DNA of 62,704 nucleotides, counting the filler, from Chrysochromulina tobinii (Eukaryota): the NCBI GenBank assembly GCA_001275005.1. It is 6 parts of 6 records of this genome, joined end to end, with 100 filler letters (N's around TTAATTAATTAA, not from the genome) between each part and the next. Parts side by side here need not be neighbours in the genome. Positions count along the whole stretch, not along the records: positions 1 to 11,605 come from JWZX01000895.1; 5 more parts are not named here. One strand, written 5' to 3'. Positions 549 through 57,417 of this stretch are shown here, piece by piece (within the stretch, counting starts at the first letter, position 1; each line of letters begins with the position of its first letter). A model generated the notes under the pieces. The model saw nothing but the letters and a program-made list of their open reading frames with translations. It was not told where the DNA came from and made no database searches. The position numbers were made by a program, and so were the translations under genes.

Positions 549-3500
549 TCAAGACGCCCCAACGGACGCCCCGCGCTCGCGCACCCTTGCGCGTACCTCC
601 TTGATCCACGCGCTCGCCACGCGCAACCGCTCGAGGTCCCGCGAGCGCTCCTTGAGCTGCTGCACGCGTTTCTCATCGGAGCTCATCAGCTCCACCAAAT
701 TAGGGCACTCATCAATGGCGTGGGCGAGGTGCTGGCGCAGTCGCCACTCGACGGTCGCAGTACACACCTGATGAGGGAGGCAATCAGACCCAATTCGTAC
801 TCGCCATCAAGCGCAATCAAGCGCAATCAACTCGACGGTCGCAGGACACACCTCCGCGTGCGTGCCCAGCTGGACGTAGTCGAGCAGCCGCCGTTTCATC
901 ACGTGCCAGTACGCGTACGTCTTCAGCTGCAGCTCGACGAGGGCGTGCTCCTCGGTCGCGGGCTCCTTGGAGCGCTTCGCGTTGATGCCCTGTGCAAACT
1001 TCTTGGCGCTTGCGGGCGCGTCGGCCGACTGCTGCACGATATCGAGGTACGCCTGGCTCGTGGTGTGGGGCTCATTCTCCCAAGCGAGCAGCGTCTCGCC
1101 AATGGCCAAGGCACGCTCGAGGCCCTCGGTGATTGCAATCTGGGCGGCGGGCTCGAGTAGGGCGTGTAGGTTGTGGGGGCGGGCGTAGCAGCTCACCGCC
1201 TCCACTACGGACTCTTCCGTCGCCGCGGAGACCTGACGTACGTGGCCCACGATCAGCCCGTGCAGCGGCGCGAGCAGCTTCCGAAGCACGCCGACGGCGA
1301 CCTCGGAAACGATCTCATTCGGGAGACCGAGCCCGCCACGACGCGCGTCCGCTTCAAGGCGCAGCATGGTCCGAAACTGGCGCGAGCCGAAAAAGTCGTC
1401 CGTGTATAGCGCGTCCATCTCGGCACAGAGCGCCTGGTCGCGCGCATGCAGCTTGGCGCAAAGGAGCATGCGTGGCTGTGCCACGTCGCCGCCGCCCCCG
1501 CCCCCGAAGGGCCACAATCGAGAGAATGGCCAGAGCCCAACACGGCGCCCGATGCTGCCCACGTGGGCGCCGAGTTGGGCGCCCCCAACGCCAACGCCGC
1601 CGCCGCCGCCGCCGCCGCCGCTGGCCGCAGCAGCTCCAACGCCCAACTCGGCGCCGCCCATGTTGGGCTGAGCCCCTGTAGGCGCCCAACTCGGCGCCGC
1701 CCATGTTGGGTGAGCCCCTGTAGGCGCCCAACTCGGCGCCCATGTGCCACTCGTGGTCCAAGGCGCGGCCGGAGCGCTCCGCCTGCAGCCGATGGATGAT
1801 CTTGTCGACGACGAGGGCGGCGGTGGCCTTGGCGGCCTTCAATCGGCAACCACGCGACTCAGAGCCGATGGCGTTCAGATCTCACGAGAGAGGCCATCAG
1901 AGGCCATCAGAGGCCCATCAGAGGCCCTCAGAGGCCATCAGTGGGCCATCGCACCTGGAGCGAGTCAGGCACGGTGCCGATGCGCTCAATCTCGGCACGC
2001 AGCTCGCGCTCGCGCTGCTGTATGCGCGTGGCGATCGCGGGGAGCGACTGCGTAATCCTTCGCTCCTGATGAGGGAGGCAATCATTCCCAATTAGTACTC
2101 GCAATCAAGCGTAATCAATCGCAATCAAGCGTAATCAAGCGTAATCCTTCGCTCCTGGAGCTGTACAAGGCGCTGCCCGAGCTCGGCGACTCCCAATCCA
2201 TAGCCCGCGGCCGCCGCGCCTCGCTGCAGCTCGGGGTGGCCGAGATCTCGCAGCTCGAGCTCACGCGCCGTGCTGAGCGAGAGGCGGCTCTCATTCTCGC
2301 GCTGCGTGCGGTTTCGGACCAGGAAGGTGTGCTGCGGCCGCACATGGAGCTCGTGGATGGCGCTCTGCACCTGCATGCAATGAGGGAGGCAATCAGAGGT
2401 CATCAGAGCTCATCAGAGCTCGTGGATGGCGCTCTGCACCTGCATGCAATGAGGGAGGCAATCAGAGGTCATCAGAGGTCCTTAGAGCTCGTGGATGGCG
2501 CTCTGCACCTGCATGCATGCCAGTGCAGGGGCCATCGGACGCAATTAGGGGCACTAATAATGACCGAAGTCATCAGGGACCATCGGACGCAATTAGGGGC
2601 ACTCAGTGGCAGGAGCTCGTGGATCGCGCTTGGCCGTCGTCAATCAAGCGCAATCAAGCGCAATCAGGGGCACTCAGGGGCACTCAGTGGATCGCGCTTG
2701 GTCGCGCCTCAATCAAGCGCAATCAAAGCTCAATCCAGTCGCAATCAAGTCGCAATCAAGCGCAATCCAGTCGCAATCAAGCGCACCTTGGCCGCGAGTC
2801 GCGCCTCATCGTGCATCTCGTCCACCTTGGTGACGCACCTGATGAGGGAGGCAATCAGATGCACTCACACACCATCCGCGGCCCTCACCCTCGTCCACCG
2901 TGGTGACGCACAGCAGCGTGCGCTCGCCCGAGGGATCGACCTGGCGCGCGAGCTGCAGGCTGCCGCTCGTCGAGAAGTCGACCATGGCGCTGACCTGATG
3001 AAGGAGGCAATCAGACCCAATTAGTACTCGCAATCAAGCGCAATCAAGCGCAATCAAGCGCAATCAAGCGCAATCAAGCGCAATCAAGCGCAATCCAGTC
3101 GACCATGGGGCGCTCACCACGTTGAGGACGATGCAGCTCTCGGGGGCCATGTACTGCAGGCACATCTGCTTGATGCGCTGCTCGAGCTCGGCGTCCGGCA
3201 TCGACTGTCCCGCGACCGCGACGCGCGTGATCCCGGGCAGATCGATCAGATCGAGATCGTCGAGATCGCGCCGGTAGATGCGCAGCGTGATCGGCACGTC
3301 ACTCACGTCCTTGGCCGTGCCTGCGAGCGCAATCAAGTCGCAATCAAGTCGCAATCAAGTCGGAATCAAGTCGCAATCAAGTCGCAATCAAGCGCAAATC
3401 AAGTCGCAATCAGGCCGCCATCAAGCCGCAATCAAGTCCTTGGGCGTGCCTGCGAGCCTCTCGGTCATCTCTTCGACCGCGCGTGAGATTTGGGACAGAT

Positions 3501-4104
3501 CGCCGATGCGCTGCTCCGCGATCTCGGGAGCCGAGATGAAGGCGCACTCGCTCCCGCCGCCCTCGCGAAGGCCGCGCAGCTGCAGAACCAGCGGGCAACG
3601 CGTCTTGATGCCCTCGCCGCGCGGCAGGTCGACAGTCGAGAGCGCCTCGAGCAGCGACGTCTTGCCGTGCGACTGGTCGCCGACGACGACGATGCGCGCC
3701 GTCGAGGCCTGCGCCGCGTCGCTGCTGCGTCCCTGCCGGAGGATCGGCACGACCTCGCGCTCAAGGAAGGCGTTGAGCTCGAGCAGCGGGCGCACATGCT
3801 GCTTGAAGCCACTCAGCAGCGAGGAGGTCGTCACGAGCGGCTCCTCAGGCTGGCTGCTGCTACGGTTGCCGCCGAGCCGCTGCTCGACGAGGTTTCTCAT
3901 GCCGAACGGAGAGGCCGCCGCCTCAGCAGCCGCCGCAGCGGCAGCGCTCGCGGCGGCGGCCACGACGGCAACCGTCGCGCGGAGGCTCCCCGACGCGGCA
4001 GATCTGGCCGTGGCGGCGGTGCGCGTAGCGCCCATGCACCCGCCGCGTCGGATCGCGCCGAGCGGTCGCGTGCAGACGCGGAAGCCGATGGCAACTCGCG
4101 CCAT
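549..4104 (-). CDS. Mx/DRP4-like dynamin-family GTPase, spliced. Exons approx. 4104-3450, 3320-3118, 2994-2912, 2838-2787, 2370-2155, 2065-1955, 1836-852 (one unresolved frame break near 1640-1743) and 767-549
   Basis: After splicing: G1 VVVGDQSHGKTS, G2 IKTRCPL, G3 LIDLPGI, G4 TKVD; middle domain LGQRLVQLQERRITQSLP; GED-like AYWHVMKRRLLDYV. Intron phases are consistent. Start at ATG 4104 (alternative ATG 4035). Confidence 0.9.
768..851 (-). other. GT-AG intron (84 nt) flanked by a 24-bp exon duplication
   Basis: Plus-strand ACTCGACGGTCGCAG(T/G)ACACACCT at 746-769 and 830-853. Filler is TTGATTGCGC units plus the acceptor cassette. Splicing joins the two ORFs in frame. Confidence 0.88.
1837..1954 (-). 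other. GT-AG intron (118 nt) with TGATGGCCTC decamer repeats and no obvious flanking duplication
   Basis: CAG|GTGCGA...TTGAAG|GCC joins DSLQ to AAKATAAL in frame. Confidence 0.75.
2066..2154 (-). other. Probable GA-AG intron (89 nt) flanked by a perfect 19-bp duplication
   Basis: Plus-strand GCGTAATCCTTCGCTCCTG at 2050-2068 and 2139-2157. The intron ends in TGATTGCCTCCCTCATCAG. Removal gives LVQLQ|ERRITQSLP. Confidence 0.75.
2371..2786 (-). other. GT-AG intron (416 nt), microsatellite-rich, with repeated copies of the acceptor plus downstream exon start
   Basis: AAG|GTGCGC...TGCATGCAG|GTGCAG. 69-bp period units start at 2347, 2416 and 2485. Confidence 0.8.
2839..2911 (-). other. GT-AG intron (73 nt) with a 22-bp duplication of the G4 motif codons
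   Basis: Copies at 2817-2838 (encodes CVTKVDE) and 2890-2911 (CVTTVDE). Ends in the acceptor cassette. Confidence 0.9.
2995..3117 (-). other. GT-AG intron (123 nt) with an exon-start duplication and a (TTGATTGCGC)n array
   Basis: The intron starts GTGAGCGCCCCATGGTCGACT and the downstream exon starts GTCAGCGCCATGGTCGACT. The intron ends CTGATTGCCTCCTTCATCAG. Confidence 0.88.
3321..3449 (-). other. GC-AG intron (129 nt) flanked by a 22-bp duplication straddling AG|GC
   Basis: Plus-strand GTCCTTGG(C/G)CGTGCCTGCGAGC at 3307-3328 and 3436-3457. Filler is GACTTGATTGC-type units. Confidence 0.85.
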
Positions 4105-6898: not shown

Positions 6899-7042
6899 AC
6901 TGAGTTCAAAATCAGGTGGTGGGGATAGTGTGTGAATCCAGAAAGAATACCCTCCCCTACCCGCCGTTTGGGTCAATTACTGAGTTCAAAATCAGGTGGT
7001 GGGGATAGTGTGTGAATCCAGAAAGAATACCCTCCCCTACCC
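6899..7042. repeat. Tandem direct repeat, about 63 bp, period 80
   Basis: ACTGAGTTCAAAATCAGGTGG...CCTCCCCTACCC occurs twice. Confidence 0.9.
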
Positions 7043-7281
7043 CTTTGGGTCAAGTTTGGGTCGAGGTTTTCAGATTTCATGATCATGAAATCATGATTCC
7101 GTTCCATGCTCCGTTCGGAGGCAGCCGCTTCTAGTTCTACCATGATCTACCGGGACGGGATGCAGATCTTGTTTTGGGTTTTGGACTGGTTCGACTGTTA
7201 CGTTAGGGGATTCCAGCACATTCGATTCTGAAAAGTTTGATCTCGAACTCAAGAGACAAATCAGCATAAGTTTCTCGCCGC

Positions 7282-8922
7282 TCAAGCCCCCAACGCCTCG
7301 AGCACGGCATCAAGCGCGCGGCCACCCTGCAGGCTCTTGCAGTCGGCCTTAAGCAGTACCCGCGCGAGCTGCCCAACGGTCATCTTGGCCGCGAGCAGCC
7401 GCGCGACCGCCGCCCCTAGGCCCGTGGCACGCGGGTCGCCGTACGGGAAGTAGAGTATTGTGCGGCCCGCGCGCGAGGCCGCGATCCACTGCAGCAGTGC
7501 CTTGAGCCGCAGATCGCCGCCGAAGACACCGCAGCCCCAGTTGCCCGTTGCAAAGGGTTGACGCGCAGCCCCTGCGGCGCCGGCGCTCGGCGCGCTTCGC
7601 ACACTCGGAGCCGCGACCGATCTCGACGTCGTGGTTCGGGTACGCTTGCGCGCTGCGCCCGTCGTCTCCAGTGCCGTCGCCTCCGGCGCCGTCGCTGCCA
7701 CCGTCGGTGCCACTGTCAGCGCTGCCACAACGGTCGCATTCGTCGCCGTCGGCGAGTGAGTGCCCGTCGCGGGTGGCGGGGCCGCGGCAGGCCAGCCTTC
7801 GGTCGACAATCCCGCCCATAATTTGGTGAGCTCCCGCAGCATCTCCTTGGGCGTGTACTGCGCGCGACGGTCCTCACCCAAATATGGGCGAGCATCAATA
7901 GCGAGCACTGTCGCGCTGCTCGCCGCTGGGTCGGCATACGCGCCCGTGCACTCGAAGCGACTGCCGTATCCCTCGTACGAAGCATACTGCCGAATGCCGC
8001 TGAGCAGGATTGCCTCGTGGTCGCCCATGCGGGGGCACAGCAGCAGCGACACGAGCGCCTCCGGGCAGATAGAGAAGCGAATCTCCTCCTGCACGTTACC
8101 TCCGCACAGCACGCCACCCCCAATGTACTCATTGGCAAAGTCGGCCTGTAAAGCTCCGCGCGCCTCCTCCAGCCCGCCTGTCGCCACGACCTCCATGGGC
8201 AGTAACGGCTGCTCGCATGCCATCCAGCCGGCGGCGGTTAGGGCGGCGGCGCGCTCTGGCTGGAGAACGAGCCGTCGGATCTCAATCGGCTCAGATGCAT
8301 CGGTCTGTGCGGCGCACTGGGCAGCACACTGAGCCGCGTCGGACGTACTGGGCGGCGCGCCCGCTTCCGCACTCTCCGCCGCCTCGCCGCCGTTCAGCTC
8401 CTCGAGGTGGCGGATGCGCAGAAAGTACTGCAGGAGGCAGTGCGCCTTGTGCCCGTCGGCCTCGTCCACCGCCTCGGCGTGCAACCAGGAGCGGACGGTC
8501 AGCCGGTCGGGCATATGCCAGCCGTGATTGGGCTGCTCCGGGAGCGCATCAAAAAAGGCGAGCGCCAGCAGCGACGCCACCTCCATGCGGGTGAGGCTCA
8601 CATAGCCTGCGACCCCCGGCGGCAGGAAAGTGAGCGGTACCCGAGAGTAATCGAAGAGCGATTCCGATCGCAGGGCGAGGCGAGCGATGTACGCGACGAG
8701 AGACCACCACTCATCCTCCTCGTCGAATACCTCCGCGAGAGCGGCGACGCCCTCAAAGGCGCCGTACGACGAAGGGCTGCACTCATCACGCTTGTACCAG
8801 CTTGTGCGCGTGAGGATGTCGACGAGCGCGTCGTTCGAACAGCAATCGCGCACCTCTTCGAGCGCAGACCGTTGCTGCGGCCAGCGCGCCGGGTCGTGCA
8901 GCAGTACGGGCGGGGTAGACGT
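7282..8922 (-). CDS. PARG: Poly(ADP-ribose) glycohydrolase; start codon unresolved
   Basis: ADFANEYIGGGVLCGGNVQEEIRF (GGG-X-QEE signature), ATGNWGCGVFGGD, LQWIAAS. Confidence 0.9.
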   Translation of the reverse strand, partial: TSTPPVLLHDPARWPQQRSALEEVRDCCSNDALVDILTRTSWYKRDECSPSSYGAFEGVAALAEVFDEEDEWWSLVAYIARLALRSESLFDYSRVPLTFLPPGVAGYVSLTRMEVASLLALAFFDALPEQPNHGWHMPDRLTVRSWLHAEAVDEADGHKAHCLLQYFLRIRHLEELNGGEAAESAEAGAPPSTSDAAQCAAQCAAQTDASEPIEIRRLVLQPERAAALTAAGWMACEQPLLPMEVVATGGLEEARGALQADFANEYIGGGVLCGGNVQEEIRFSICPEALVSLLLCPRMGDHEAILLSGIRQYASYEGYGSRFECTGAYADPAASSATVLAIDARPYLGEDRRAQYTPKEMLRELTKLWAGLSTEGWPAAAPPPATGTHSPTATNATVVAALTVAPTVAATAPEATALETTGAARKRTRTTTSRSVAAPSVRSAPSAGAAGAARQPFATGNWGCGVFGGDLRLKALLQWIAASRAGRTILYFPYGDPRATGLGAAVARLLAAKMTVGQLARVLLKADCKSLQGGRALDAVLEALGA

Positions 8923-10019
8923 TGTTTTCGGTCGGGAGCCGGGGCGGCGGAAGGGTCGGGAGGGCGGCGCCGGCGGTGAGGGGTTATTACTATGTACAGT
9001 ACTGTAGTAGGGTCCAGCGACTCACCCTCGACTCCGGTGTCGAAATAAATCAATGGCTGTGAATAGATTAGACGGTTTGGCCTACTGGCCTCCCTTAGGA
9101 CTGCTACGGAGCGGCGACCCTGAACACGGATGGGTACACACGCCACACACGGAAAGTACCGAGATGGCATGCAATGCAACATCCACCCGTGTGCCGGGGC
9201 GCCGCCTGCGAACGAGCGCAGTGAGTTGAACACTGACCTAACTACCACGCATATTGGGGGTCGGGTGGGCGGGCGCTTGCCATGGCTCTGCGCGCTCTTG
9301 TGCGCCAGACCACGAAAGCGAAGCCAAAGGCAGCTTTACAGTGGTGGCCCCCGTGGTAGCGGAGCTTTTTGCACGGTCGCATCATCACCTGAGCTGCGGT
9401 CGGGGCCACGCCCCGCCGCTCGAGCTCGTCAAACGAGACCCACGTCGCTTGCTGCCCGTCCACCGAGCGTACGAGGAAGGACCTGCGTCCCCTCGCCCAC
9501 GGCCTTCCGGCGCAGGTGATCTGGTCCGCAGCACGCACCGTTGATCCGTGCACTCTCGCAACAAATCGGAGCGTTGTCTAGCCTCGAGCAGACCGCCTTC
9601 ATGCACCGTATCGACAGGCAATCTGCATCGTACAAATGCAGCAGACAAACCAACCTAACATCCTGAGCTCGACCTCAGTCGATGCCCCCCGCACGCCCGG
9701 CGGCGTGACTTCCTACGAGGACTTCGAGGCGATGTTCGACCATGAAGAGTTCGTTCGCTTCTAGATGGTCTTCAGTGATCATTAGGGCCTGACGATTTCT
9801 CGGCGCTGCTCTCTTTAGCGTTGGGGTCTCTTCGCACACACTGACTCGAGCTTGGTCAGCTCGCGGCAGGTCTGCGGGCTTCCGAGGGCAGCTATGGCGT
9901 GTTTACCCATCGTTGTGCACATCGAGCATCTAACCGAGCCCATCTGGCGGGCGCACGACAGCGAACCCCGCAGATAGAGTTATAGAGCTCATAAACGTCC
10001 GAGTCCCATCGACCCATGG

Positions 10020-32569: not shown

Positions 32570-35500
32570 TTATGCACCGTCTTCGCCGTTCAACAACACG
32601 CCCGCATGCAGCCACGGAGGCTGCTTGCACGCCAGCAGCCGCTCAATCTCGCACTGCCAGTGCCATGCCGTGTCGGAGACGTCGCACGCCGCCGCGTACG
32701 CGTTGCGCCGCAGCGCGGCGTAGTGCTCGGGCTGCGCGTACAGCGCCAGCGCACGCTCGAGCGAGCTCATCAGTGCCGAGTGCGAGTGCCCTGAAAAGGT
32801 CAGTCCGGAGCCCTTACGGCTGCGCTCGTCGTAGTCGGCCACTCGCTCGCGGAGGCCGCCGGCGCGCGAGCAGACGAGCGGCGTGCCGGCTGCGAAGAAC
32901 TCCTCGCGCACGAGCCCCGAGGGTTCGAAGAGGGAAGGCATGAGCCCAAAGTCCGCCGCGATGCTTGCGAGCGCGCCGTCCTCGAAAAAGGTGGCTGGGT
33001 CGGCCCAAAAGTGGTCTGGGTACGTTGCCTGGAGCGAGGCCATTTGTGGGCCGATGAATAGGCTATCCAGGCAATCAATAGGCCCCATAGGCCATCAAGA
33101 GGCAATCAAGAGGCCATCAAGAGGCCATCAAGAGGCCACCCGTGGAGATCGCACCTGGAGTGTGGCCATTTGGTCCGCGCACCGACGAGCGTATGCGTCC
33201 GAGGGGTCTGCGTGGCCGCAGACACACAGCTGCAGCTGCCCACGCGCGGCTTGGAGGATGGCCGGCACGCAGTCGAGGAGCAGATGGATGCCCTTTTGGT
33301 ATGAGATCCGCCCGAGGAAGAGGAGCAAAGGCACCGACGAGCGCACGCCAGATTCGCCAAAGCAGCGGCGCTGTAGCGTCGCCTTCGCGGCGGCATGGTC
33401 GCCATGCGCGGCCAGCTCGGCACGGCGCCGGCCGAGGGGCAGCCCCGAGGCGCATGCAATCGCTCCACCCGCCGCACGTAGCAGCGGCGCGTAGCTCGAG
33501 GATGCGAGGAGCTCGTCCCGATAGCTCGTCGAGACGGTCGCCCACGCACACGAGCAGAGGAGCGCGGCCCGAGTGAGCGAGATCGTGCCGAGATTGGGCT
33601 CCTGGCTGCCGCCCTTGCGACCCCCGCCCTCGTGCAGCAGACGGTGCGGCAGCTGGTGCAGCGCCGTCAGTTGCGTCGCCGGCGCATCCACCACCAACTT
33701 ACCATCGTACCCGGGCTCAAGGTTGTGGATGAGGTGCACGAAGAGCGCCGACTCGCCGAGCGCTCTCACCCCACTCGCCGCACTACCAGCCCAGCCCGGG
33801 TGTTGGGCGTAGGGCGCAGCGAGACCGGCCACCCAGTCGTTGGTCACGACTGCGTGCGGCAGCGGCTCTCCGCGCTCGCGCAGTCGGTCGAGCAGGAGCA
33901 GCGCGCCGCGCGCGAGCAGCGCGGCTGGGAGCAGTTTGCGCGCGGTACCACCTGTGGGGTCAGCAGAGGTCAGCAGAAGTCTTCAGAGGCCATCAGAAGT
34001 CCTCAGAGGCCATCAGAGGTCATCAGAGGCCATCAGAGGTCCTCAGAGGCCATCAGAGTTCCTCAGAGGTCACCTGTGGGGTAGGGCGCGCCAAAGCAAG
34101 CGCCATTCTCAAGGAGATGCACCGTCACTCCATGCTCCTGTATGGTGCGCACGCCCACGGACATGTGGGCGTGCCCGAGGGGAACTTGCAACGAGTACTC
34201 GAGGCGCATCGATGCCCAACGCGGCGCGTAGCACCGGTAGGCCGGCGCGATCACGCGTACGTGCGCGCCGCGCGCGGCGAGCGCGGCCGACAAGTGCGCG
34301 GTCATCGTGCCGAGCCCTCCGACGGATGCCCAGCGACCGAGTTCGGGGGTGATCAAGACGAGCCTCCGCGGCTGTGCCACCTCCACAAGCGCCCGGTGCA
34401 ACCGTGCAATTGGATCTCGGTGCAATCTCGGTGCAATTGGCGCGTTTGGGGCGGGCTGGAGGGGCGCAGCGGGTGTGGCGGGCGCGGCCGGCGGGCCTGC
34501 TGCGGCGGGCGGGCGCAGCGAGTCGCCGGCCGAGGCCGCATCCCCCGGCGCATCCCCCGAATGCCCACTGAGGACGCAATTGGGCGAGGCGGACGTTGGG
34601 TATGCGTCGTCGCTCGTCTTGACAACCGCTTGGTGTGCCTGCCATCGAGGGGTGGGGATTTCGGTCTGCGCGAGCCGACTCATTGCGCCGAGCGCACGCC
34701 GGATAGCCTGCGTCGCGCGCTGCGCGGCCTCCGCGGTCGTCAGAGCCTCGCATCTCGGTACGATCTCGGTACAATCTCCCGTGGCCGTGAGTGCCTCGGC
34801 AGCACGATCTCCCACACGATCTCCCACGCCGTCACGAGCGCCGTCGCGAGCGGTGTCCGACCCAAATATGTGAATCGGCTCGAGCGACTCGTCAGAGTGC
34901 TCTCCACCTCCAGCCCCAGCCCCAGCCCCAGCCCCAGCCCCTCCCACAGGCTCATGCAGCTCGTCAGAGTGCAGCGCACCTGCCTGGGCGGCCATATGCA
35001 CTGCGGCTGAGAGCATGAGTGCTAACGGTGCCATCATCCCGTCCTCGATGGGCATGAGCGACGTGAGGAGCGCGAGCAGACGGTGGCCAGAGGCGTTCGC
35101 GTCCGCGGACGCGCAGATGCGCTGCAGCGCCGTCGCCGCAGCATTGTGCTTCGCGTACGCACTCGGCCGTTGGCTCAGCCGACGGAGTGCACTGAGCAAG
35201 TGCGACCGGTAAGTCAGGTGCTTGGAGCAGTGCACGCGCAGGGCGACCAAGCCGTTGGCAGGCACACGTGCATGCAGCTGAGAGTGAGCCAGCTCTTGCC
35301 GAGAGAAGACCTCGAGCGCAGGCTCCTCAGCCTGGCATCCGGACGACATGACGCCAGGAACTCTGGCCACGGCGCTGACGCTGCTCGTGGAGGTCAGCAT
35401 GCGGTGGACGGCAACGAGCGCCTGGGGATCGTCATCGGCGCCATGGAGAGCTTCGGCGGAGACGTTGACTGCGACTGTCGTCGCAGCGCCGCTCAGATCG

Positions 35501-39679: not shown

Positions 39680-39995
39680 CTTGGGTTGTGGCCATTTTGG
39701 GCAGCGAACATCAAGGCGGTCATGCCGTCGGACCTTGCCTTAATTGGGTCCGCCTTTGCCTCTAGCAGGACAAGGGCGCACCGCTCATGGCCATTTGGGG
39801 CAGCCCATATCAAGGCGGTGACGCCATCGTTGTTCTGAGCGCTCACCACGGCGCCCGCCTCAAGCAGGACGCGAGCAACCTGCTCGTGGCCATTTAGAGC
39901 AGCGAACATCAAGGCGGTCCTCCCGTCGGACAATGCCCTATTTGGGTCCGCCTTTGCCTCGAGTGTTACTTTGCCTCATTTTGGTCCGCCTTTGC
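39680..39995 (-). pseudogene. Extra out-of-frame ankyrin units downstream of the NACHT-ankyrin ORF
   Basis: TALMFAALNGHEQVARVLLEAGA and similar units from the same 99-bp family. Confidence 0.75.
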
Positions 39996-42276
39996 CTCAG
40001 TAAATCACAGACAGCAGAATGTCCACCCCTCTCCGCAAGTTTCAGAGCATTCCAGCCGCTGAGACCAGAAAGCTCCTTGTTCCGGTCAGCTCCCGCCTCG
40101 AGCAGGACAAGAGCAACCTGCTCGTGGCCATTTAGAGCAGCGAACATCAAGGCGGTCATGCCGGAAGACATTGCCCTATTTGGGTCCGCCTTTGCCTCGA
40201 GCAGGACGAAAGCAACCTGCTCGTGGCCATTTTGGGCAGCGATGATCAAGGCGGTCACGCCGTCGGACCTTGCCTGATTTGGGTCCGCCTTTGCCTCGAG
40301 CAGGACGAAAGCAACCTGCTCGTGGCCATTTAGGGCAGCGCACATCAAGGTGGTCGAGCCGTTGGACCTTGCCTGATTTGGGTCCGCCTTTGCCTCGAGC
40401 AGGACGAGAGCAACCTGCTTGTGGCCATTTTGGGCAGCGAAACCCAAGGCAGTCGTGCCGTCAGACATTGCCTTATTTGGGTCCGCCTTTGCCTTGAGCA
40501 GGACGAGAGCAACCTGCTCGTGGCCATTTAGGGCAGCACACATCAAGGTGGTCGTGCCGACGGAATCTGTCATATTTGGGTCCGCCTTTGCCTCGAGCAG
40601 GACGAAAGCAACCTGCTCATGGCCATTTAGGGCAGCACACATCAAGGTGGTCACGCCGCCGGACCTTGCCATATTTGGGTCCGCCTTTGCCTCGAGCAGG
40701 ACGAGAGCAACCTGCTCGTGGCCATTTAGAGCAGCGAACATCAAGGCGGTCATGCCGTTGGACTGTGCCTGATTTGGGTCCGCCTTTGCCTTGAGCAGGA
40801 CGAAAGCAACCTGCTCGTGCTGGCCATTTTGGGCAGCGAACGTCAAGGCGGTCCTGCCGTCAGACATTGCCTTATTTGGGTCCGCCATCGCCTCGAGCAG
40901 GACGTGAAGGCAGCGCTCGTGTCCAAAACGGCTCGCCAGCATGAGTGGAGTGCCACCGTCGGAATCGGCGAGCGCCGCATCCGCCCCTCGAGTGAGGAGC
41001 TGCTGCACGATCGGCTCGGCGCCCTCCTCCGCGGCGAGGTAGAGCGCGGTGCAGCCCTCGGCGCTCTGCGCATTCAGCGTGGAGGCGTTTGAGGATGCCA
41101 GCAGCTTGGCGACGGCCGCGAGTTGCTTGCGGCGGGACGCGACCATGAGCGCCGTCATCCTCCCCGCGTCCTGCGTGCGTGCGAGGGTTGCCAGGTCCCC
41201 CGTCGCGGCGGCGCGCAGCCGCTCCGTGCGCGTGCACGCCTCGTCGGTGAACTCGTGGTCCGAGAGCGTCGGCACAAAGAGGCGGACGACGGCGTGCTGC
41301 TTGGCGTTCCGTGCTGCTCCGACTGCGGACTGGAGCTGCGTGTTGTTCTCCTCCTTGTCGGCGCCCTTTGCGACGAGCGCACGGCAGATGGCCACGTGCC
41401 CGCCGGCGGCGGCGCGGTGCAGCGGCGTGTTGGCGCGCTCGTCCGTGACGAGCGGGTTGACACCCGTGTCGAGCAGCGCCTCGACGAGCGCCGCGTCGCC
41501 CGCCCCTGCGGCGAGACGGAGGAGCGCGCCCGCGCCGTCGGACGCAACGACGAGCGCCTTGGTGCGCGGCAGGCCCTTCTTCTCGTCCCACCCCATGATC
41601 TTGACGTCCACCGCGTCGCCCTCCACGCGTGCGACCACGGCCGGCGTCCAGAAGTTCCCGTCGCGGGCGAGCACTCTCTTGCCCACGACGAGCGCGTCTG
41701 CAGCAGCCAGCTTCCCCGCCTCGCGCGCCGCCTCGATCGCCACGCCCTTGGCCGCCTCGAGCGCCGTGGGCAGCCACGCGGCAGGCAGTCCCTTGCGCAC
41801 GAGCGTGGCGAGCACGTGCAGCCGCCACGCCTCCTGGGCTGGCACGGCCGCCGCCTCGGCTACCGGCAGCTGCGCCGCCTTGACGAACGCGTCGCCAAAC
41901 GCCGCGCCACCCGCCTGCACGCCCATGAGAACGGCGTTCGTCCACCACACGCCCCACGCAAACGACGACAGCGGCAAGCCGCCATCGCCGATGGCGAGCA
42001 TCGCATAGTACTCCTGGAAGGAGAGATGGAAGGCCTGCATCTGCAGCGGCTTCGCCTCGAGCAGGCGCACGAGCGGCAGCCCGTCTCGCGCCACCAGGGC
42101 GCGCAGCTCGTCGGCCGCGCGCTGGGCGGCGGCCATGCCGATGCGCGCGCTGATACGCGCGGCGGCGGCGCCGAGGTGTACCTCGGTGATGATGCGCTGC
42201 TCGGCGGCGTGCGCCTCGAAGAAGGTGGCTTGCAGCAGCGCGCGCGCGTCGTCCGACACGGCGGCGCCCGACCGTT
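39938..42276 (-). CDS. NLR-like (NACHT winged-helix plus ankyrin repeat) protein, 5'-truncated by the contig end
   Basis: FHLSFQEYYAM is typical of the NACHT-associated winged-helix region. Divergent ankyrin repeats follow, then about 8 near-identical 33-aa repeats. The P-loop is not in the window. Confidence 0.75.
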
Positions 42277-42376: not shown

Positions 42377-42477
42377 CCCTACGTAGCCGCTGGTTTCGAG
42401 ACCTGAAAATGCAATCCTGAGGAGTTAGGTCGAAAAAACGCTGTTTTGAGCGGCAGTTGACCTTTGTTGACCTCAAC

Positions 42478-43740
42478 CGAGGACCGGCGCCACTGGTCAC
42501 CATTGGTCACCCCTGGTCGCCCGTGTGCGCCCATTGAAGCCAGAACCCCCTGGCACCTTCTGGCACCCTCTGGTACCTATGGGCGCGCATGGGCGCACAT
42601 GGGCGACCGCTGGCGTGTACCGACGTATGAGCGCCCATCGTACCGAGGACCGGCGCCACTGGTCACCACTGGTCGCCAGCGAGCGCTTGTGTGCGCCCAT
42701 TGAAGCCAGAACCCCCTTGCACCTTCTGGCACCCTCTGGTACCGATGGGCGCTCATGGGCGCTCATGGGCACACATGGGCGCCCGCTGGAGCGTATGAGC
42801 GCGTACCGAGCACCTGCGCCAGTGGTCGCCAGTGGTCGCCAGTGGTCATCAAAGACCCGCACGCCTGAGACATAGCAGCTCAGGGAGGGCTCTGGCGGCC
42901 CTGCTCACATGGACAGAGTGACCACTTGTGTAGCATTTTGGGTAGCCTTAGTGCTCGGAGCCGTGGCACACGGAATGCGTGTACCGAGGAGTGGCGCCAC
43001 TGGTCACCCCTGGTTGCCAGTGAGCGCCCGTGTGCGCCCATTGAAGCCAGAACCCCCTGGCACCTTCTGGCACCCTCTGGTACCCATGGGCGCTCATGGG
43101 CGCTCATGGGCGCACATGGGCTACCGCTGGCGTGTACCGACGTATGAGCGCCCATCGTACCGAGGACCGGCGCCACTGGTCACCACTGGTTGCCAGTGAG
43201 CGCCCGTGTGCGCCCATTGAAGCCAGAACCCCCTGGCACCTTCTGGCACCTTCTGGTACCCATGGGCGCTCATGGGCGCTCATGGGCGCACATGGGCGAC
43301 CGCTGGCGTGTACCGACGTATGAGCGCCCATCGTACCGAGGACCGGCGCCACTGGTCACCACTAGTTGCCAGTGAGCGCCCGTGTGCGCCCATTGAAGCC
43401 AGAACCCCCTGGCACCTTCTGGCACCCTCTGGTACCGATGGGCGCTCATGGGCGCTCATGGGCGCGCATGGGCGACCGCTGGCGTGTACCGACGTATGAG
43501 CGAGTATCTATTGAGGACAGTCCGGGGCCAGTGCTCGCCAGTGGTCGCCAGTGGTCATCAAAGACCCGCACGCCTGAGACATAGCAGCTCAGGGAGGGCC
43601 CCGGCGGCCCTGCTCACGTGGACAGAGTGACCACTTGTGTAGCATTTTGGGTAGCCTTAGTGCTCGGAGCCGTGGCACACAGAATGCGCGCGAGGACCGG
43701 CGCCACTGGTCGCCCCTGGTCGCCCCTGGTTGCCCCTGGC
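42478..43740. repeat. Satellite with a monomer of about 176 bp and a higher-order period of about 709 bp
   Basis: GAGGACCGGCGCCACTGGTC recurs near 42479, 42646, 43162, 43338 and 43692. The block AGTGGTCATCAAAGACCCGCACG occurs at 42841 and 43550. Confidence 0.9.
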
Positions 43741-50900: not shown

Positions 50901-53845
50901 GGAGCTTTCGGAGGCGTCGCTGCCGCAGCAGTGTGGGGAATTGGCGCTCGTGTGCGCTGGCTGCTGCCTCGACCTCTCACGCGCTTTATGCATACCCGGC
51001 GGCGCCTCGCCGCCGCCCCCGCCGCCGCCGCCGCCGACTGGTGGCGCTGCAGTTGACGGCAGCGCGGCCGGTGCATCCAGTGCAGACGCATCGAGCACGG
51101 CGACAGAAGGGAGCCCAGCAAGGTCTCATACCGGTACCTCTCGTATTCTGGGAGCGGCCGCGTCCCTCGCGCTCTTGCAAGCGGCCATCGAGGCCCTGCT
51201 GCTCCATGTGTTTCGGGTGCGGGGGGGCGCGAGCGAGCAAGGGTGCCGATCGGCCTGCTGGATTCCTCAGGCCGCGCTTGCACCGCCCTCGCCGCTCGTC
51301 GCCATGCCCTGGGAGCCCAGCTACGCGCCGTTGGCCACCGACGATGCCGCCCAGCACCCAAGCGCCTCAATCAGCTCGGCGTCCGCCGCGCCTCCGCCGG
51401 CCGTCGTCGCATCCGCTGCTGACGGCACCGTTCAGCACCCAAGCGCCTCAGCGTCCTCCTCTCTCCCCTGTACGCCCAGCACGGCGCCCTCGCCGGCATC
51501 GCCCGCCGCCTCTCTACCTTCATCCCCCACGCACCTGTCGGAGTTGGAAGCGCGCGCCTCCCTGCTACTGCAGCAACTCACGCAGCAGATGGGCGATTCG
51601 CTCTACGAGCTCTCGTCCCTTCATGCCGCTGCCCACCACACGGCTTCCGACGGCCGCAACGACGCCAGCGACGATGCCCGCAACGACGCCCCGCACGCAG
51701 CAGCGACGGACGGACGGGCAGACGGCGCAGGGGCCATTGTGGAACCCGAAGCCGCCAACGCCGCCAACGCCGCCGCTGCAGCCAACGCCGCAGCGGCCGC
51801 CGGCACTGCAGCCGCCGGCACTGCCGCCGCCGGCAGTGCCGACGACGACGCCTCCTCCGCCTCCTCCTCCTCCATCCCCTGGGAATTCCTCCACCCGCCA
51901 TGGGTGCGCAAACAGCTCGCTCCCTTGATCGCATGGCTTGCAGCCGCCACTGCCGGCATCTCCCAACCCACACGCGCCGCTCTGCGCTCCATGGCACTTC
52001 GCGAGTCCCTGCCTCCCGACCCAGACGGTGCGGTCCGCTGCCTTCGGCTCGCAAGGACCGCCTATTGGTGGTCCCTGCTCATCTCGGCGCGTCACACCAC
52101 TTGGGCCGTTGGCGCTGGCAGTCCTAGCGCCGAGGGTGGGAACACTTCCGAAGCCGAGCACTCGAAGCTTCCGAAGCCGAGCACTTCCGAAGGAGGGCGC
52201 AGCTCCGAACGTGTGCGTAGCTCCTCGTGGCGCACAGCCTGCCTGAGCGAAGCCGTCGCCTCGCGCTCCCTAGCCCTTCGACGGCTCGGGTGTATACTCA
52301 ACGAGCTCGGCCAACGCCACCTTCGTCGGCGCGAGCCACTCCTCGCAGACGGATGCTTCGTCGATGGCATTGCCGCCTTCAGCCGCGCCAACGACGCTGC
52401 CAACACGGCGCTGCTGCTGCTCAACCGCGCCGCGATTGCACGCCAACGGGCGGCCTGGCATGTGGAGGCGTTTGCCACGGCGGCGGCGGCCATCAGCGCC
52501 GCGGAGCGAGCGCTCGCATTGCATGCCACCGCAGCCGCTGCCGTGGCGGCGATGGAGGCGGCTGAGGGGGCGACGGAGGAGGAGGGGGCGGCGGCCGAGG
52601 AGGGGGCGGCGGCGGAGGAGGGGGCGGCGGCCGCGCCCACGCAGGAGGCAGCAGGAGGCGATGCATCTGGCGGAGGCGGCAAGTTCACATCGCCTCCACC
52701 GCCACCGATGCCGCCGCCACCGTCCGTTGTCCTCGACCCCGCGGCCATCCCCGACGTCACGGAGCTCACATCTCCCCGCCATCTCCTGCTCACCTCTCCC
52801 CGCCATCTTCCCGACGAGACGGAGCTCACCCTTCTCCTGAGCGCCGTCGAGCTGCAGCGGCAGGCGTGGCAGCAGCTCCAGCAGCTCCGCGGCGGAGCCC
52901 CGGCGCCTCTGCGTGCGATGGTGCTACGGGAGCTGAGCGGCGGCGAGGCGGCGGCGGGCTCGGCGTTGCATGCGGTGGTCGCTGAGACCGGAGGGAGCGA
53001 AGCGATAGTGAGGCGCGCGGCCGCCTGCCTGGCGAGCGCTCAGCAACTCTATGAGGAGCTCGGCGAGCTCGCGCAGGTGCGGCTGATGACGGCTGATTGC
53101 CATGGATTGAAACTGGCACTGAGTGGACGCTGAGTGGACGCTGAGTGGACGCTGAGTGGACGCTGAGTGGACGCTGAGTGGACGCTGAGTGGACGCTGTG
53201 CCCGGCGCGGTGCGCGCGCAGGTGCAGCTGATGATGCGCAAGCAAGGGTCGCTCTACCTCGCCTCCCTCGTGTGTGCGTCGCTCTCGGACTCGTTGAGCG
53301 AGCGAGCTGCCGCCTCCCGCCTCACGCTTGCGCTTCGTCACTACGATCGCGCGCTCAATTTGCGTGGGGGTCTCGGCCACGGCGGCGCCGCCGCAGCCAG
53401 CGCGAATGCGGCCGCCTCCCCAACCATGGAGCGATGCGTGGCCGAGTGTCGCCTCGAGCTCGCCACCTTTTTCCTCTCGTGGAGCCTGTCGACGAGTGTG
53501 CGTGCGCTGGGGACGGAGGCGAGCGCGACGCGCATTCGCCATCTGGAAGCGGCTCTCGGCCATGCGCGTGCCGGCGCATCCGCCACCACACCCAACGCAC
53601 CCGCCATCCCCCACGCACCCGCCACCCCCCACGCACCCGCCACCCGTCCCGCAGCCACCCTTCCCGCTGAGGTGGTCCGAGCGCTCGCGCAGGCAGAGCA
53701 GACGGCCCTTCGTGAGCTCATTAAGGCGCACACAGCGCATGGCAACGTGGCCCGCGCCTCCGCCCTCAAGGAGGTCTACCGCCGCCAGCTGGGTGCGCTC
53801 AAGACGGCGCTCTCGCAGGCTGAGGGCCGAGAGGCTCCCGGCTGA
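47920..53845 (+). CDS. EDRF1: Erythroid differentiation-related factor 1-like protein (exons 47920-53076 and 53222-53845)
   Basis: MKRLLTLPY..VHRVGSSLVID, MLLGTDLPIF and DFWLDNVMNAIPALAVCGHVDGMVKGYQ match my recollection of EDRF1 conserved blocks. There are long low-complexity inserts. Confidence 0.8.
53077..53221 (+). other. GT-AG intron (145 nt) flanked by a 20-bp duplication and containing (CTGAGTGGACG)x7
   Basis: CGCGCAG|GTGC(G/A)GCTGATGA at 53070-53089 and 53215-53234. Splicing joins the two ORFs in frame. Confidence 0.9.
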
Positions 53846-54975
53846 CCTGAAAGTCGAAAGCCGATGCCAAAGTCCGCGGTGTCTCCGCTCACTCGCACTG
53901 CGTTTTGATCCATCAGTGAACCATGATCGGTGCTAACGTAAGGGCCTTCGTCGACTATCGATTATGAAGTGAGAAAATATGCCTCCATCCAGTGGCAGGA
54001 CATCTGATGTGAAGCCCAGCCGTTCGAGCTGTGAGTGGACCACACACCCGTATTCTGAGCGGGCAGTAACAGTGCCGTAGCACCGGTTGTCGCGTCTGTC
54101 GTGTTAACGTTCACACCCCGGTTGCCGCATAGGCAAACCGATTTTTTTCATCCAGCACACTTCCTACTGTACTTCCGGGAACAGTCGACAGTATATACAC
54201 GCACCCGACAGCTGTTGTTTACATGTACGGCTGCACGGCAGTACCCTACACACAGCAGCAAACCACCACATGTTCAACGTGACAGCTCCACAACTCATTC
54301 GATCCACAATCCGGTCTCCGGCTCTCCACCTTCTCGCACCGCTTGTACCCCTGCACCACCAGTTGAAAATGTTCCAACTGAGGCTAAGCTTGCCAGCTTG
54401 GTCAGCACCGACGTGCCCGATTGCAACGCGTCCGCAATCGCGTCCTTGTAGCGCGCGTTGGCATGCGTGACAAAGTCGGCCCACATTGACACTGCGTCAC
54501 CGAGGGTAGCACGCAATTGCTTGACAAGGCGCATAAGCGCAGCCCGCTCCAGCGTTGCTGTGCGCGCTTGCGCACCTTCGTGGCAAATTTGATCCGGAGG
54601 GCGGGTTGGTACGCCGCAGGCCGTGCGCCGCGGGCTGCGATCGTGCCATGGCTTAGGGCGCAAGCCATAGATCGCGAGTCCGGGCTTGGCGGCGGCACGG
54701 AGGGCGCCCCCGGCGTCGTCGTTGCTCGACATGAGCTGCATAGTACGTTGGAAGTGTTCGATCTCTTTCCGGGGAAAATTCGGCACTTTATAGGAAATAC
54801 CTTTATAGGCAACCAAATTAGGAAATAACTAAGACGACGATCAGTGTGCTCTTCATGGGGCTGGGCACGGAGGTCGTAGTTGCTCGGGGGCACGGGGAGG
54901 CCAGTTATACGAACTACCGGCATGGGGACCGATAGATGTAGTGTGGCTGGGACGGGGGTGGGGGCCGATCCTTGA

Positions 54976-55122
54976 CATTCAATTCCCAAACAGGTGTAGG
55001 GGTGGGGCCTTATAAACATGAAAAATAGTAGACCACTCCCCCTTGGGTCAACCATTCAATTCCCAAACAGGTGTAGGGGTGGGGCCTTATAAACATGAAT
55101 AATATAGTAGACCACTCCCCCC
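54976..55122. repeat. Tandem duplication, period about 77 bp
   Basis: CATTCAATTCCCAAACAGGTGTAGGGG...AGACCACTCCCC occurs twice. Confidence 0.9.
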
Positions 55123-56909: not shown

Positions 56910-57192
56910 CAACTTTGACTGATCGCTGAAGCGGAACGCTTCCGAATGGGCCCAAACCGAGCACAGGTCCCTGATCCCCACCACTAGGCCACTCTTTGGT
57001 GTAAGTATCAGCCGATCGCGGCGAAAACATCGCGGCACACGGCGCGTGTGAAAACTGGCTTTTACTATGTAAATAGTCAACTTTGACCGACCGCTGAAGC
57101 GGAACGCTGCCGAATGGGCCCAAACCGAGCACGGGTCCCTGATCCCCACCATTAGGCCACCCGTTGGTGTAAGTATTAGCCGATTGCGGCGT
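56910..57192. repeat. Direct repeat of about 114 bp, period 168
   Basis: CAACTTTGAC.GA.CGCTGAAGCGGAACGCT...AGCCGAT.GCGGCG occurs twice. Confidence 0.88.
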
Positions 57193-57417
57193 AATCTTGC
57201 GGGTTTTCCGATTTGTCCACTGGCTGATATATGTTCACAGTATGTTCACAGACACAGTACCGCATAGTCCTAATAACTTCGCGCCGTGCTGGGTTCATAT
57301 CATCAATATATACGTGAAGTTGACTTAGCCTGATGCTTAACTTCTTTGGTAGCTCTCAATGACGAGCCACCCGACTCATCAACGACGACAGTCAGTCACA
57401 CAGTCAGTCACGCACGT

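Follow-up and report, generated by a model that had tools for sequence, protein, structure and literature searches.

The origin of new spliceosomal introns is a long-open question, and most of the introner families described have no known mechanism (PMC12130899). Only 72 of 177 families carry TIRs (PMC9860276); about 5% of the classified families are non-LTR, and about 72% of families are unclassified (PMC12130899). The original prediction made for the DNA described here, which took known introners to be TIR-bearing DNA transposons with short target-site duplications (TSDs), was overstated in this respect.

Intron gain without a transposon has also been reported. It can occur by tandem duplication (PMC3443670; review, PMC11282704), and staggered breaks that leave repeat-flanked introns, one of the routes suggested in the original prediction, had already been described in Daphnia (PMC4202315). 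The introns of Chrysochromulina tobinii resemble the neointrons of Daphnia pulex in having direct repeats at opposite ends and in being present or absent within populations (PMC4202315, PMC3443670); parallel gains at one site and secondary staggered events inside young introns are known in Daphnia as well (PMC4202315). The Daphnia repeats span 4-17 bases (PMC4202315, PMC3443670) as against 12-33 in C. tobinii. Unlike in Daphnia, the filler in C. tobinii is a common, sense-oriented intron repeat with a splice signal, and the copy provides a GT, GC or GA donor.

Two TIR-less families come from haptophytes and, like the introns described here, carry one splice site and obtain the other from the duplication: Chrysochromulina sp. 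family 5 (PMC9860276) and E. huxleyi fam24, which has '10bp terminal direct repeats' and co-opts the 5' site (PMC12130899). As far as their published descriptions go, these are sequence families with a 4-bp TSD (or a 2-bp one, as called), the 4-bp TSD being that of the TIR-less Chrysochromulina family (PMC9860276), whereas the C. tobinii introns differ from one another in length and content and have duplications that are both long and variable. Non-LTR introners such as Pavlovales fam1 (PMC12130899) also lack TIRs and would fit long variable duplications with one fixed end; the C. tobinii introns differ from them in having several filler families and no intergenic copies in the stretch analysed. 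The ILEs of Polarella and Symbiodinium likewise take the donor from the duplication, use GA and GC donors and derive either or both sites in this way, but they have a fixed 3-8-nt TSD in each class and DNA transposon signatures (10.1101/2020.10.14.339549).

How do the introns of C. tobinii compare? Those described here lie in the window, a stretch of 62,704 nt made of six joined parts of the genome. An aminotransferase encoded on the third of these contigs shares a 90% cluster with C. tobinii KOO35368, to which it is near-identical where the two overlap, in keeping with a C. tobinii-like haptophyte if all contigs belong to one organism. They are not TIR introners, and they appear to work like Daphnia-type staggered-break gain fed by an introner-like common template. 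In the explanation that we prefer, with a probability of about 0.5, a staggered break is repaired with filler from an existing intron, and the result is a new spliceosomal intron with a 12-33-base copy of the target at its flanks. Introners without TIRs, introners of the non-LTR class and break-repair introns in Daphnia had all been reported before. The long variable copy with common oriented filler is new to the literature searched, in which exon copies of this kind combined with a common repeat filler were not found described, subscription papers lying outside its coverage. The available text of a 2025 survey that included C. tobinii gives no introner families for this species; such introns were missed (PMC12130899).

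Introns of an Mx-like gene and their exon copies

The main locus is an Mx/dynamin-like gene of about 810 codons once its seven introns are removed. Its product has a Pfam Dynamin_N match, and the frame is open for 807 residues from 4005 when one surplus base near 1668 is dropped. This base, which lies inside a 42-bp repeat and shifts the frame, is probably an assembly error; it is missing in assemblies L006 and L007 and in one contig of RNA run X14. Seven introns are unusual, because C. tobinii averages about one per gene (PMC4580454). The features discussed below are the following.

560..4005, minus strand: Mx/dynamin-like gene
3321..3449, minus strand: Mx intron 1, GC-AG, 129 nt; both splice sites within a 26-nt copy spanning the junction, 2 mismatches; 11-mer filler
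2995..3117, minus strand: Mx intron 2, GT-AG, 123 nt; donor supplied by a junction-spanning copy of 20-22 nt, 1 substitution and a 2-nt insertion; 10-mer array and branch/acceptor cassette
2839..2911, minus strand: Mx intron 3, GT-AG, 73 nt; junction-spanning copy of 22 nt, 1 mismatch, supplying a weak donor; cassette without array
2371..2786, minus strand: Mx intron 4, GT-AG, 416 nt, compound; older outer intron
2371..2508, minus strand: two tandem 69-nt units; 33-nt copy across the old acceptor and 36-nt filler ending in the cassette
2066..2154, minus strand: Mx intron 5, GA-AG, 89 nt; 19-nt copy, 0 mismatches
1837..1954, minus strand: Mx intron 6, GT-AG, 118 nt; 10-mer filler; no copy (score 3)
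768..851, minus strand: Mx intron 7, GT-AG, 84 nt; donor from a 24-nt junction-spanning copy, 1 mismatch; array and cassette
33029..33154, minus strand: intron in a glycosyltransferase-5 gene, predicted from sequence; own donor, acceptor from a 19-nt copy, 2 mismatches
33952..34073, minus strand: predicted intron in the same glycosyltransferase-5 gene, interrupting a Pfam domain; both sites from a 12-nt copy, 0 mismatches
53077..53221, plus strand: predicted intron in an EDRF1-like gene; donor and acceptor both supplied by a 20-nt copy, 1 mismatch; 11-mer array

Three further features of the gene and its surroundings were observed. Positions 1480-1760, in the Mx stalk region, encode a Gly-rich low-complexity insert with a 42-bp tandem repeat, part of which is covered by RNA contigs. 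A poly(ADP-ribose) glycohydrolase gene (7282-9021) lies a few kb away, and an antiviral neighbourhood is possible. In L010, exon 1 of Mx has an 11-nt insertion at about position 520 that would shift the frame and is either an allele or an assembly error.

Splicing was assessed in contigs of five of the six RNA runs, together with DNA contigs of one of ten DNA runs, X1. Among the junctions listed, exact skips were found for six of the Mx introns: 84 nt (X11, X14), 89 nt (X12), 73 nt (X15), 416 nt (X14, X15, and X11 with just 24 nt on one side), 123 nt (X12, X14, X15) and 129 nt (X14). Three of the skips are joined on one X15 contig, and loose ends at intron 3321-3449 were also seen in X11, X13 and X14. 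There were no other letters at the skips, so that the letter kept is that of the exon copy, for example at 768-851 in X11 and X14. Removal of the insertion thus restores the coding sequence in six Mx introns, as the original prediction had proposed. Intron 2839-2911 is spliced in an X15 contig but often retained, as contigs from each of X11, X12, X13 and X14 show; the RNA-run contigs also include a number of pieces that are unspliced or derive from DNA. For intron 1837-1954, the donor at 1954 was placed by RNA pieces that stop there, and the acceptor is suggested by the frame and the spacing in homologues. The donors used are GT, GC (3449) and GA (2154), and E. huxleyi likewise uses all three (PMC4028052). 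It should serve as a warning that introns of this kind, with GA and GC donors and long repeats at the junctions, escape both read mappers and gene finders.

The copies were compared with controls at the DNA level in 10 introns. Junction-anchored scores were 12-21 in eight of them, whereas none of 90 mismatched intron/flank pairs scored above 11. The bounds first proposed for nine introns proved correct, including those of the three on other contigs with copies of 12-20 nt. An exon copy had been proposed for six of the seven Mx introns. It holds for five, in which it spans the junction over 19-26 nt with the expected 0-3 differences; in the sixth, 2371-2786, the outer ends have only 6 nt in common (score 6, within the control range), and the copy belongs to a nested unit. 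A stricter blind scan gave 0-2 matches in each of five order-4 Markov copies of the window and recovered seven of the nine copy-bearing introns, missing 2995-3117 and 33029-33154. The scan also picked up coding tandem repeats, for example ankyrins; in the window, 99-bp ankyrin coding repeats at 39688-40904 imitate the duplication signature in blind scans.

Are the copies an artefact of assembly? The original prediction had raised this possibility. They are not, because both copies are carried by X1 DNA contigs and by assemblies L006-L008. The X1 contigs cross the whole of 2066-2154 and both ends of 768-851 and 3321-3449. L006-L008, which probably represent the same strain as the window and hence are not independent populations, reproduce the copies base for base where covered, differing in the number of 69-nt units and in the window base at about 1668.

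Intron 4 has a more complex structure. Its 33-nt copy, 9 nt of which are intronic, forms part of a 69-nt unit nested at the acceptor end. Assemblies disagree on how many of these units there are, with more in L007 and L009, and the units are missing in proteins P0240, P0243, P0246 and P0247, where assembly collapse is possible. The interior of the intron contains a decayed piece of one flanking exon end (score 33, shuffle maximum 28) and, marginally, a piece of the other (score 23, shuffle maximum 22).

Composition and source of the filler

Each intron contains 36-125 nt of foreign filler, made of 10-11-nt repeats around a branch-point-like core. Intron repeats of 10-11 bp period were reportedly described in E. 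huxleyi by Read et al. in 2013. The introns of E. huxleyi are rich in repeats (10.1101/283549). In five segments of the window, the filler includes a cassette ending CTGATTGCCTCCCTCAT(CAG). Words of at least 10 nt are common to 22 of 45 pairs of fillers in sense orientation and to none of the 45 in antisense, the likeness being greatest among fillers of the Mx gene. Words of at least 13 nt are found in 13 of 22 same-gene pairs as against 2 of 23 between-gene pairs, the pairs not being independent of each other, and similarity between introns is limited to common words of 13-25 nt. All 11 repeat clusters in the window lie within introns and in the sense orientation. In run X1, 1322 contigs matched, and filler bins were far deeper than exon bins, which points to many other loci and is not to be read as copy number.

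Where does the filler come from? Under repair of staggered breaks, an exon would be opened by two nicks 12-33 nt apart. A freed end resembling the 10-11-nt intron repeat would anneal to another intron (its DNA or its RNA), often one belonging to the gene that was broken. Copying would take in a stretch of repeat of variable length, to which the branch-point/acceptor end or the donor end might or might not be added. Fill-in would then duplicate the target. The survivors would be sense insertions only, those whose lacking G[TCA] donor or AG acceptor is provided by the copy. Later, the copy would decay, often toward the repeat unit, and an existing intron could be struck again.

Host repair is ranked first because either intron end and several repeat families have been copied (an acceptor end in four Mx introns and a donor end in 33029-33154), because same-gene fillers are the most alike, and because no intergenic copy was seen. 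The length of the copy varies from 12 to 33 nt. Where copy and filler meet, 8-mers of exon sequence agree with the repeat units at a mean of 6.0 of 8 positions compared to 5.1 in the coding background (P ~4e-4, n=9), and at a mean of 5.8 for all 11 junctions (P ~2e-3), in a test that is partly circular, since the repeat units were taken from the same introns.

Could the filler be a retroposon instead? It is possible, if doubtful, that the introns are SINE-like introners, that is short non-autonomous retroposons, copied by a LINE or Penelope-type reverse transcriptase via target-primed reverse transcription. The RNA could be an excised intron, with priming at the AG end and truncation within the repeat region; alternatively, it could be antisense, its head fixed and its tail made of repeats. 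Long variable duplications are typical of target-primed reverse transcription, and the copies here are both long and variable. This explanation keeps its standing because of the fixed end that the cassette has at the acceptor in 768-851, 2066-2154, 2839-2911 and 2995-3117, and, three bases short, in the 69-nt unit. The other end is variable, lies inside the repeats and shows microhomology. The fixed acceptor cassette in five segments, together with its abundance in other contigs, looks more like a discrete element than like random filler. Many of these contigs join the cassette to a donor-like GTGC start, as seen in the X1 loose-end consensus; such joins are also expected if donors come from the duplicated target. 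Taken together, the traits of non-LTR elements (a long variable TSD, one fixed end, and a repeat end with microhomology) are present in five segments but not in four. Non-LTR introners do exist, one of them in a haptophyte (PMC12130899).

Against retroposition, the cassette is missing from four of the nine copy-bearing introns, which have other repeat families, and one of these, 33029-33154, carries a donor end in its place. Among the 11 repeat clusters in 62.7 kb, a small sample, none lay outside an intron and none was antisense, and no reverse transcriptase was found among 45 distinct window ORFs scanned (of 134 listed).

Searches with the filler and the introns themselves were also made. 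A protein search with in-frame filler matched only the query, and a profile of antisense filler translations gave 11 proteins, none of them usable for testing duplications. Cassette and repeat patterns had 0, 0, 3 and 0 matches in viral contigs and 5 in genome contigs; these were set aside as chance matches in unrelated DNA. An Rfam search of the introns gave no matches. No hairpin or ribozyme is claimed, because folding did not go beyond shuffles in any intron (z -1.3 to 0.6).

Repair of staggered breaks may have a wider meaning, which is put forward tentatively: introns might beget introns without a transposon. The repeat-rich pool of introns would be the template for break repair, and each new intron would be pieced together from older ones. 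Introner screens that rely on sequence families would not see such introns, which would still be segregating in the wild.

Intron presence in relatives and the age of the introns

Intron presence was read from gene calls on unspliced contigs that run into or through the introns. The 30 listed exon-1 proteins bearing on 3321-3449 comprise one that is uninformative, 21 that enter the intron and eight that read through, so that the intron is absent in 8 of 29 informative cases. All eight belong to one haplotype or lineage and still enter intron 2, the copy of which is shorter in this lineage. For 2066-2154, 15 listed exon-5 proteins were drawn from a cluster of 55; eight of them, from one haplotype, enter the intron and seven read through. 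The latter represent three haplotypes, one of which differs from that of the window by a single residue. These seven proteins derive from unspliced sequence, because all of them start in intron 4 and stop in intron 6. Assembly collapse is unlikely to explain the absence of 2066-2154, because it is tied to exon substitutions and the copy is short (19 nt).

Other introns show less variation. Intron 4 (2371-2786) is entered by all 15 listed exon-5 proteins, intron 6 (1837-1954) is present in every lineage seen, and 33952-34073 is present in 15 of 15 listed proteins. Among the listed proteins, there was no relative without 33029-33154. Exact look-up retrieved four of ten flanking ORFs and gave no match to relatives of the EDRF1-like gene (53077-53221). 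A metagenome scan of the locus found 19 loci, five of them close and none from the intron-less lineages.

Judging by the read-through proteins of close relatives, 2066-2154 and 3321-3449 are likely to be recent gains, in line with the original prediction. Intron 2066-2154 would be the youngest, one gain being simpler than several losses. The quality of the copy follows apparent age: it is perfect in 2066-2154 and has been lost from the outer ends of the two introns that all lineages have, 4 and 6. The copy in 3321-3449 has 2 changes, and the affected residue is unchanged in the SLIP haplotype. Filler length differs between strains. The young introns keep an unusually long footprint of the insertion site, vary among the close relatives of an alga that is in culture and has public genomes, and were missed by the 2025 survey, so that break repair and retroposition can be tested directly against each other.

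An alternative is that the introns are old, that the copies came later at existing junctions, and that the absences are precise losses aided by direct repeats. The copies would then have arisen by aborted conversion, from cDNA or an intron-less allele, or by slippage from the repeat array. This is unlikely, although several observations are in its favour. Haptophyte introns are rich in repeats as a general rule (10.1101/283549). In L009, intron 2 is precisely missing (position L009 720) and introns 1, 3 and 4 are kept; it may be a partly spliced RNA or a precise intron loss. In intron 4, nested copies are found that include pieces of both flanking exon ends. This intron gained copies once it already existed, a point against the repair reading, and its nested events show that duplications also arise at existing introns. 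Against old introns with later copies, the 33-nt copy cannot have come from cDNA, because it includes intronic bases. In favour of repair, the repeated secondary events match the pattern seen in Daphnia (PMC4202315).

The original prediction had regarded positions conserved in distant algae as a sign of old introns, and this applies to one site. L013, at about 50% protein identity, has a 98-nt GC-AG intron (1789-1886) exactly at the site of 3321-3449, and P0003 (75%) runs into an intron that lies no more than about 3 nt away. The site of 3321-3449 could thus be old, with repeated loss, which would count against the repair reading; five of 15 members of the L013 cluster are without the intron at this site. 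However, the L013 intron has its own 9-nt junction copy and an unrelated filler with inverted ATAG/CTAT microsatellites, as parallel gain predicts. L013 has only one of three visible intron sites in common with the window gene, and L011 has an unbroken frame of 984 codons with no intron. The common site may reflect either an old intron with repeated loss or parallel gain; in Daphnia, 43 of 90 gains are parallel (PMC4202315). For 2066-2154, old introns would require several losses instead of one gain.

A classical cut-and-paste (MITE-type) introner or a plain tandem duplication of an exon segment is highly improbable: although Chrysochromulina MAGs contain hundreds of introners (PMC9860276) and tandem duplication is a listed route of intron gain (PMC3443670), none of the 11 segments tested has TIRs above shuffles, the duplications are variable and 12-33 nt long instead of 3-9 bp (PMC9860276), and foreign filler makes up the bulk of each intron, with duplicated exon the smaller part. 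The absence of TIRs and a route other than a DNA transposon with a fixed TSD had both been anticipated by the original prediction.

Tandem repeats of other kinds were observed elsewhere in the window. A 176-bp tandem array made of 10-mer sub-repeats occupies 42476-43502, with no Pfam match in the one frame scanned, and a long 12-bp array lies at a contig end (44100-45080). Intergenic two-copy tandem repeats with units of 77-168 bp are found at 6899-7053, 54960-55110 and 56930-57200; the first of these has more copies in L006.
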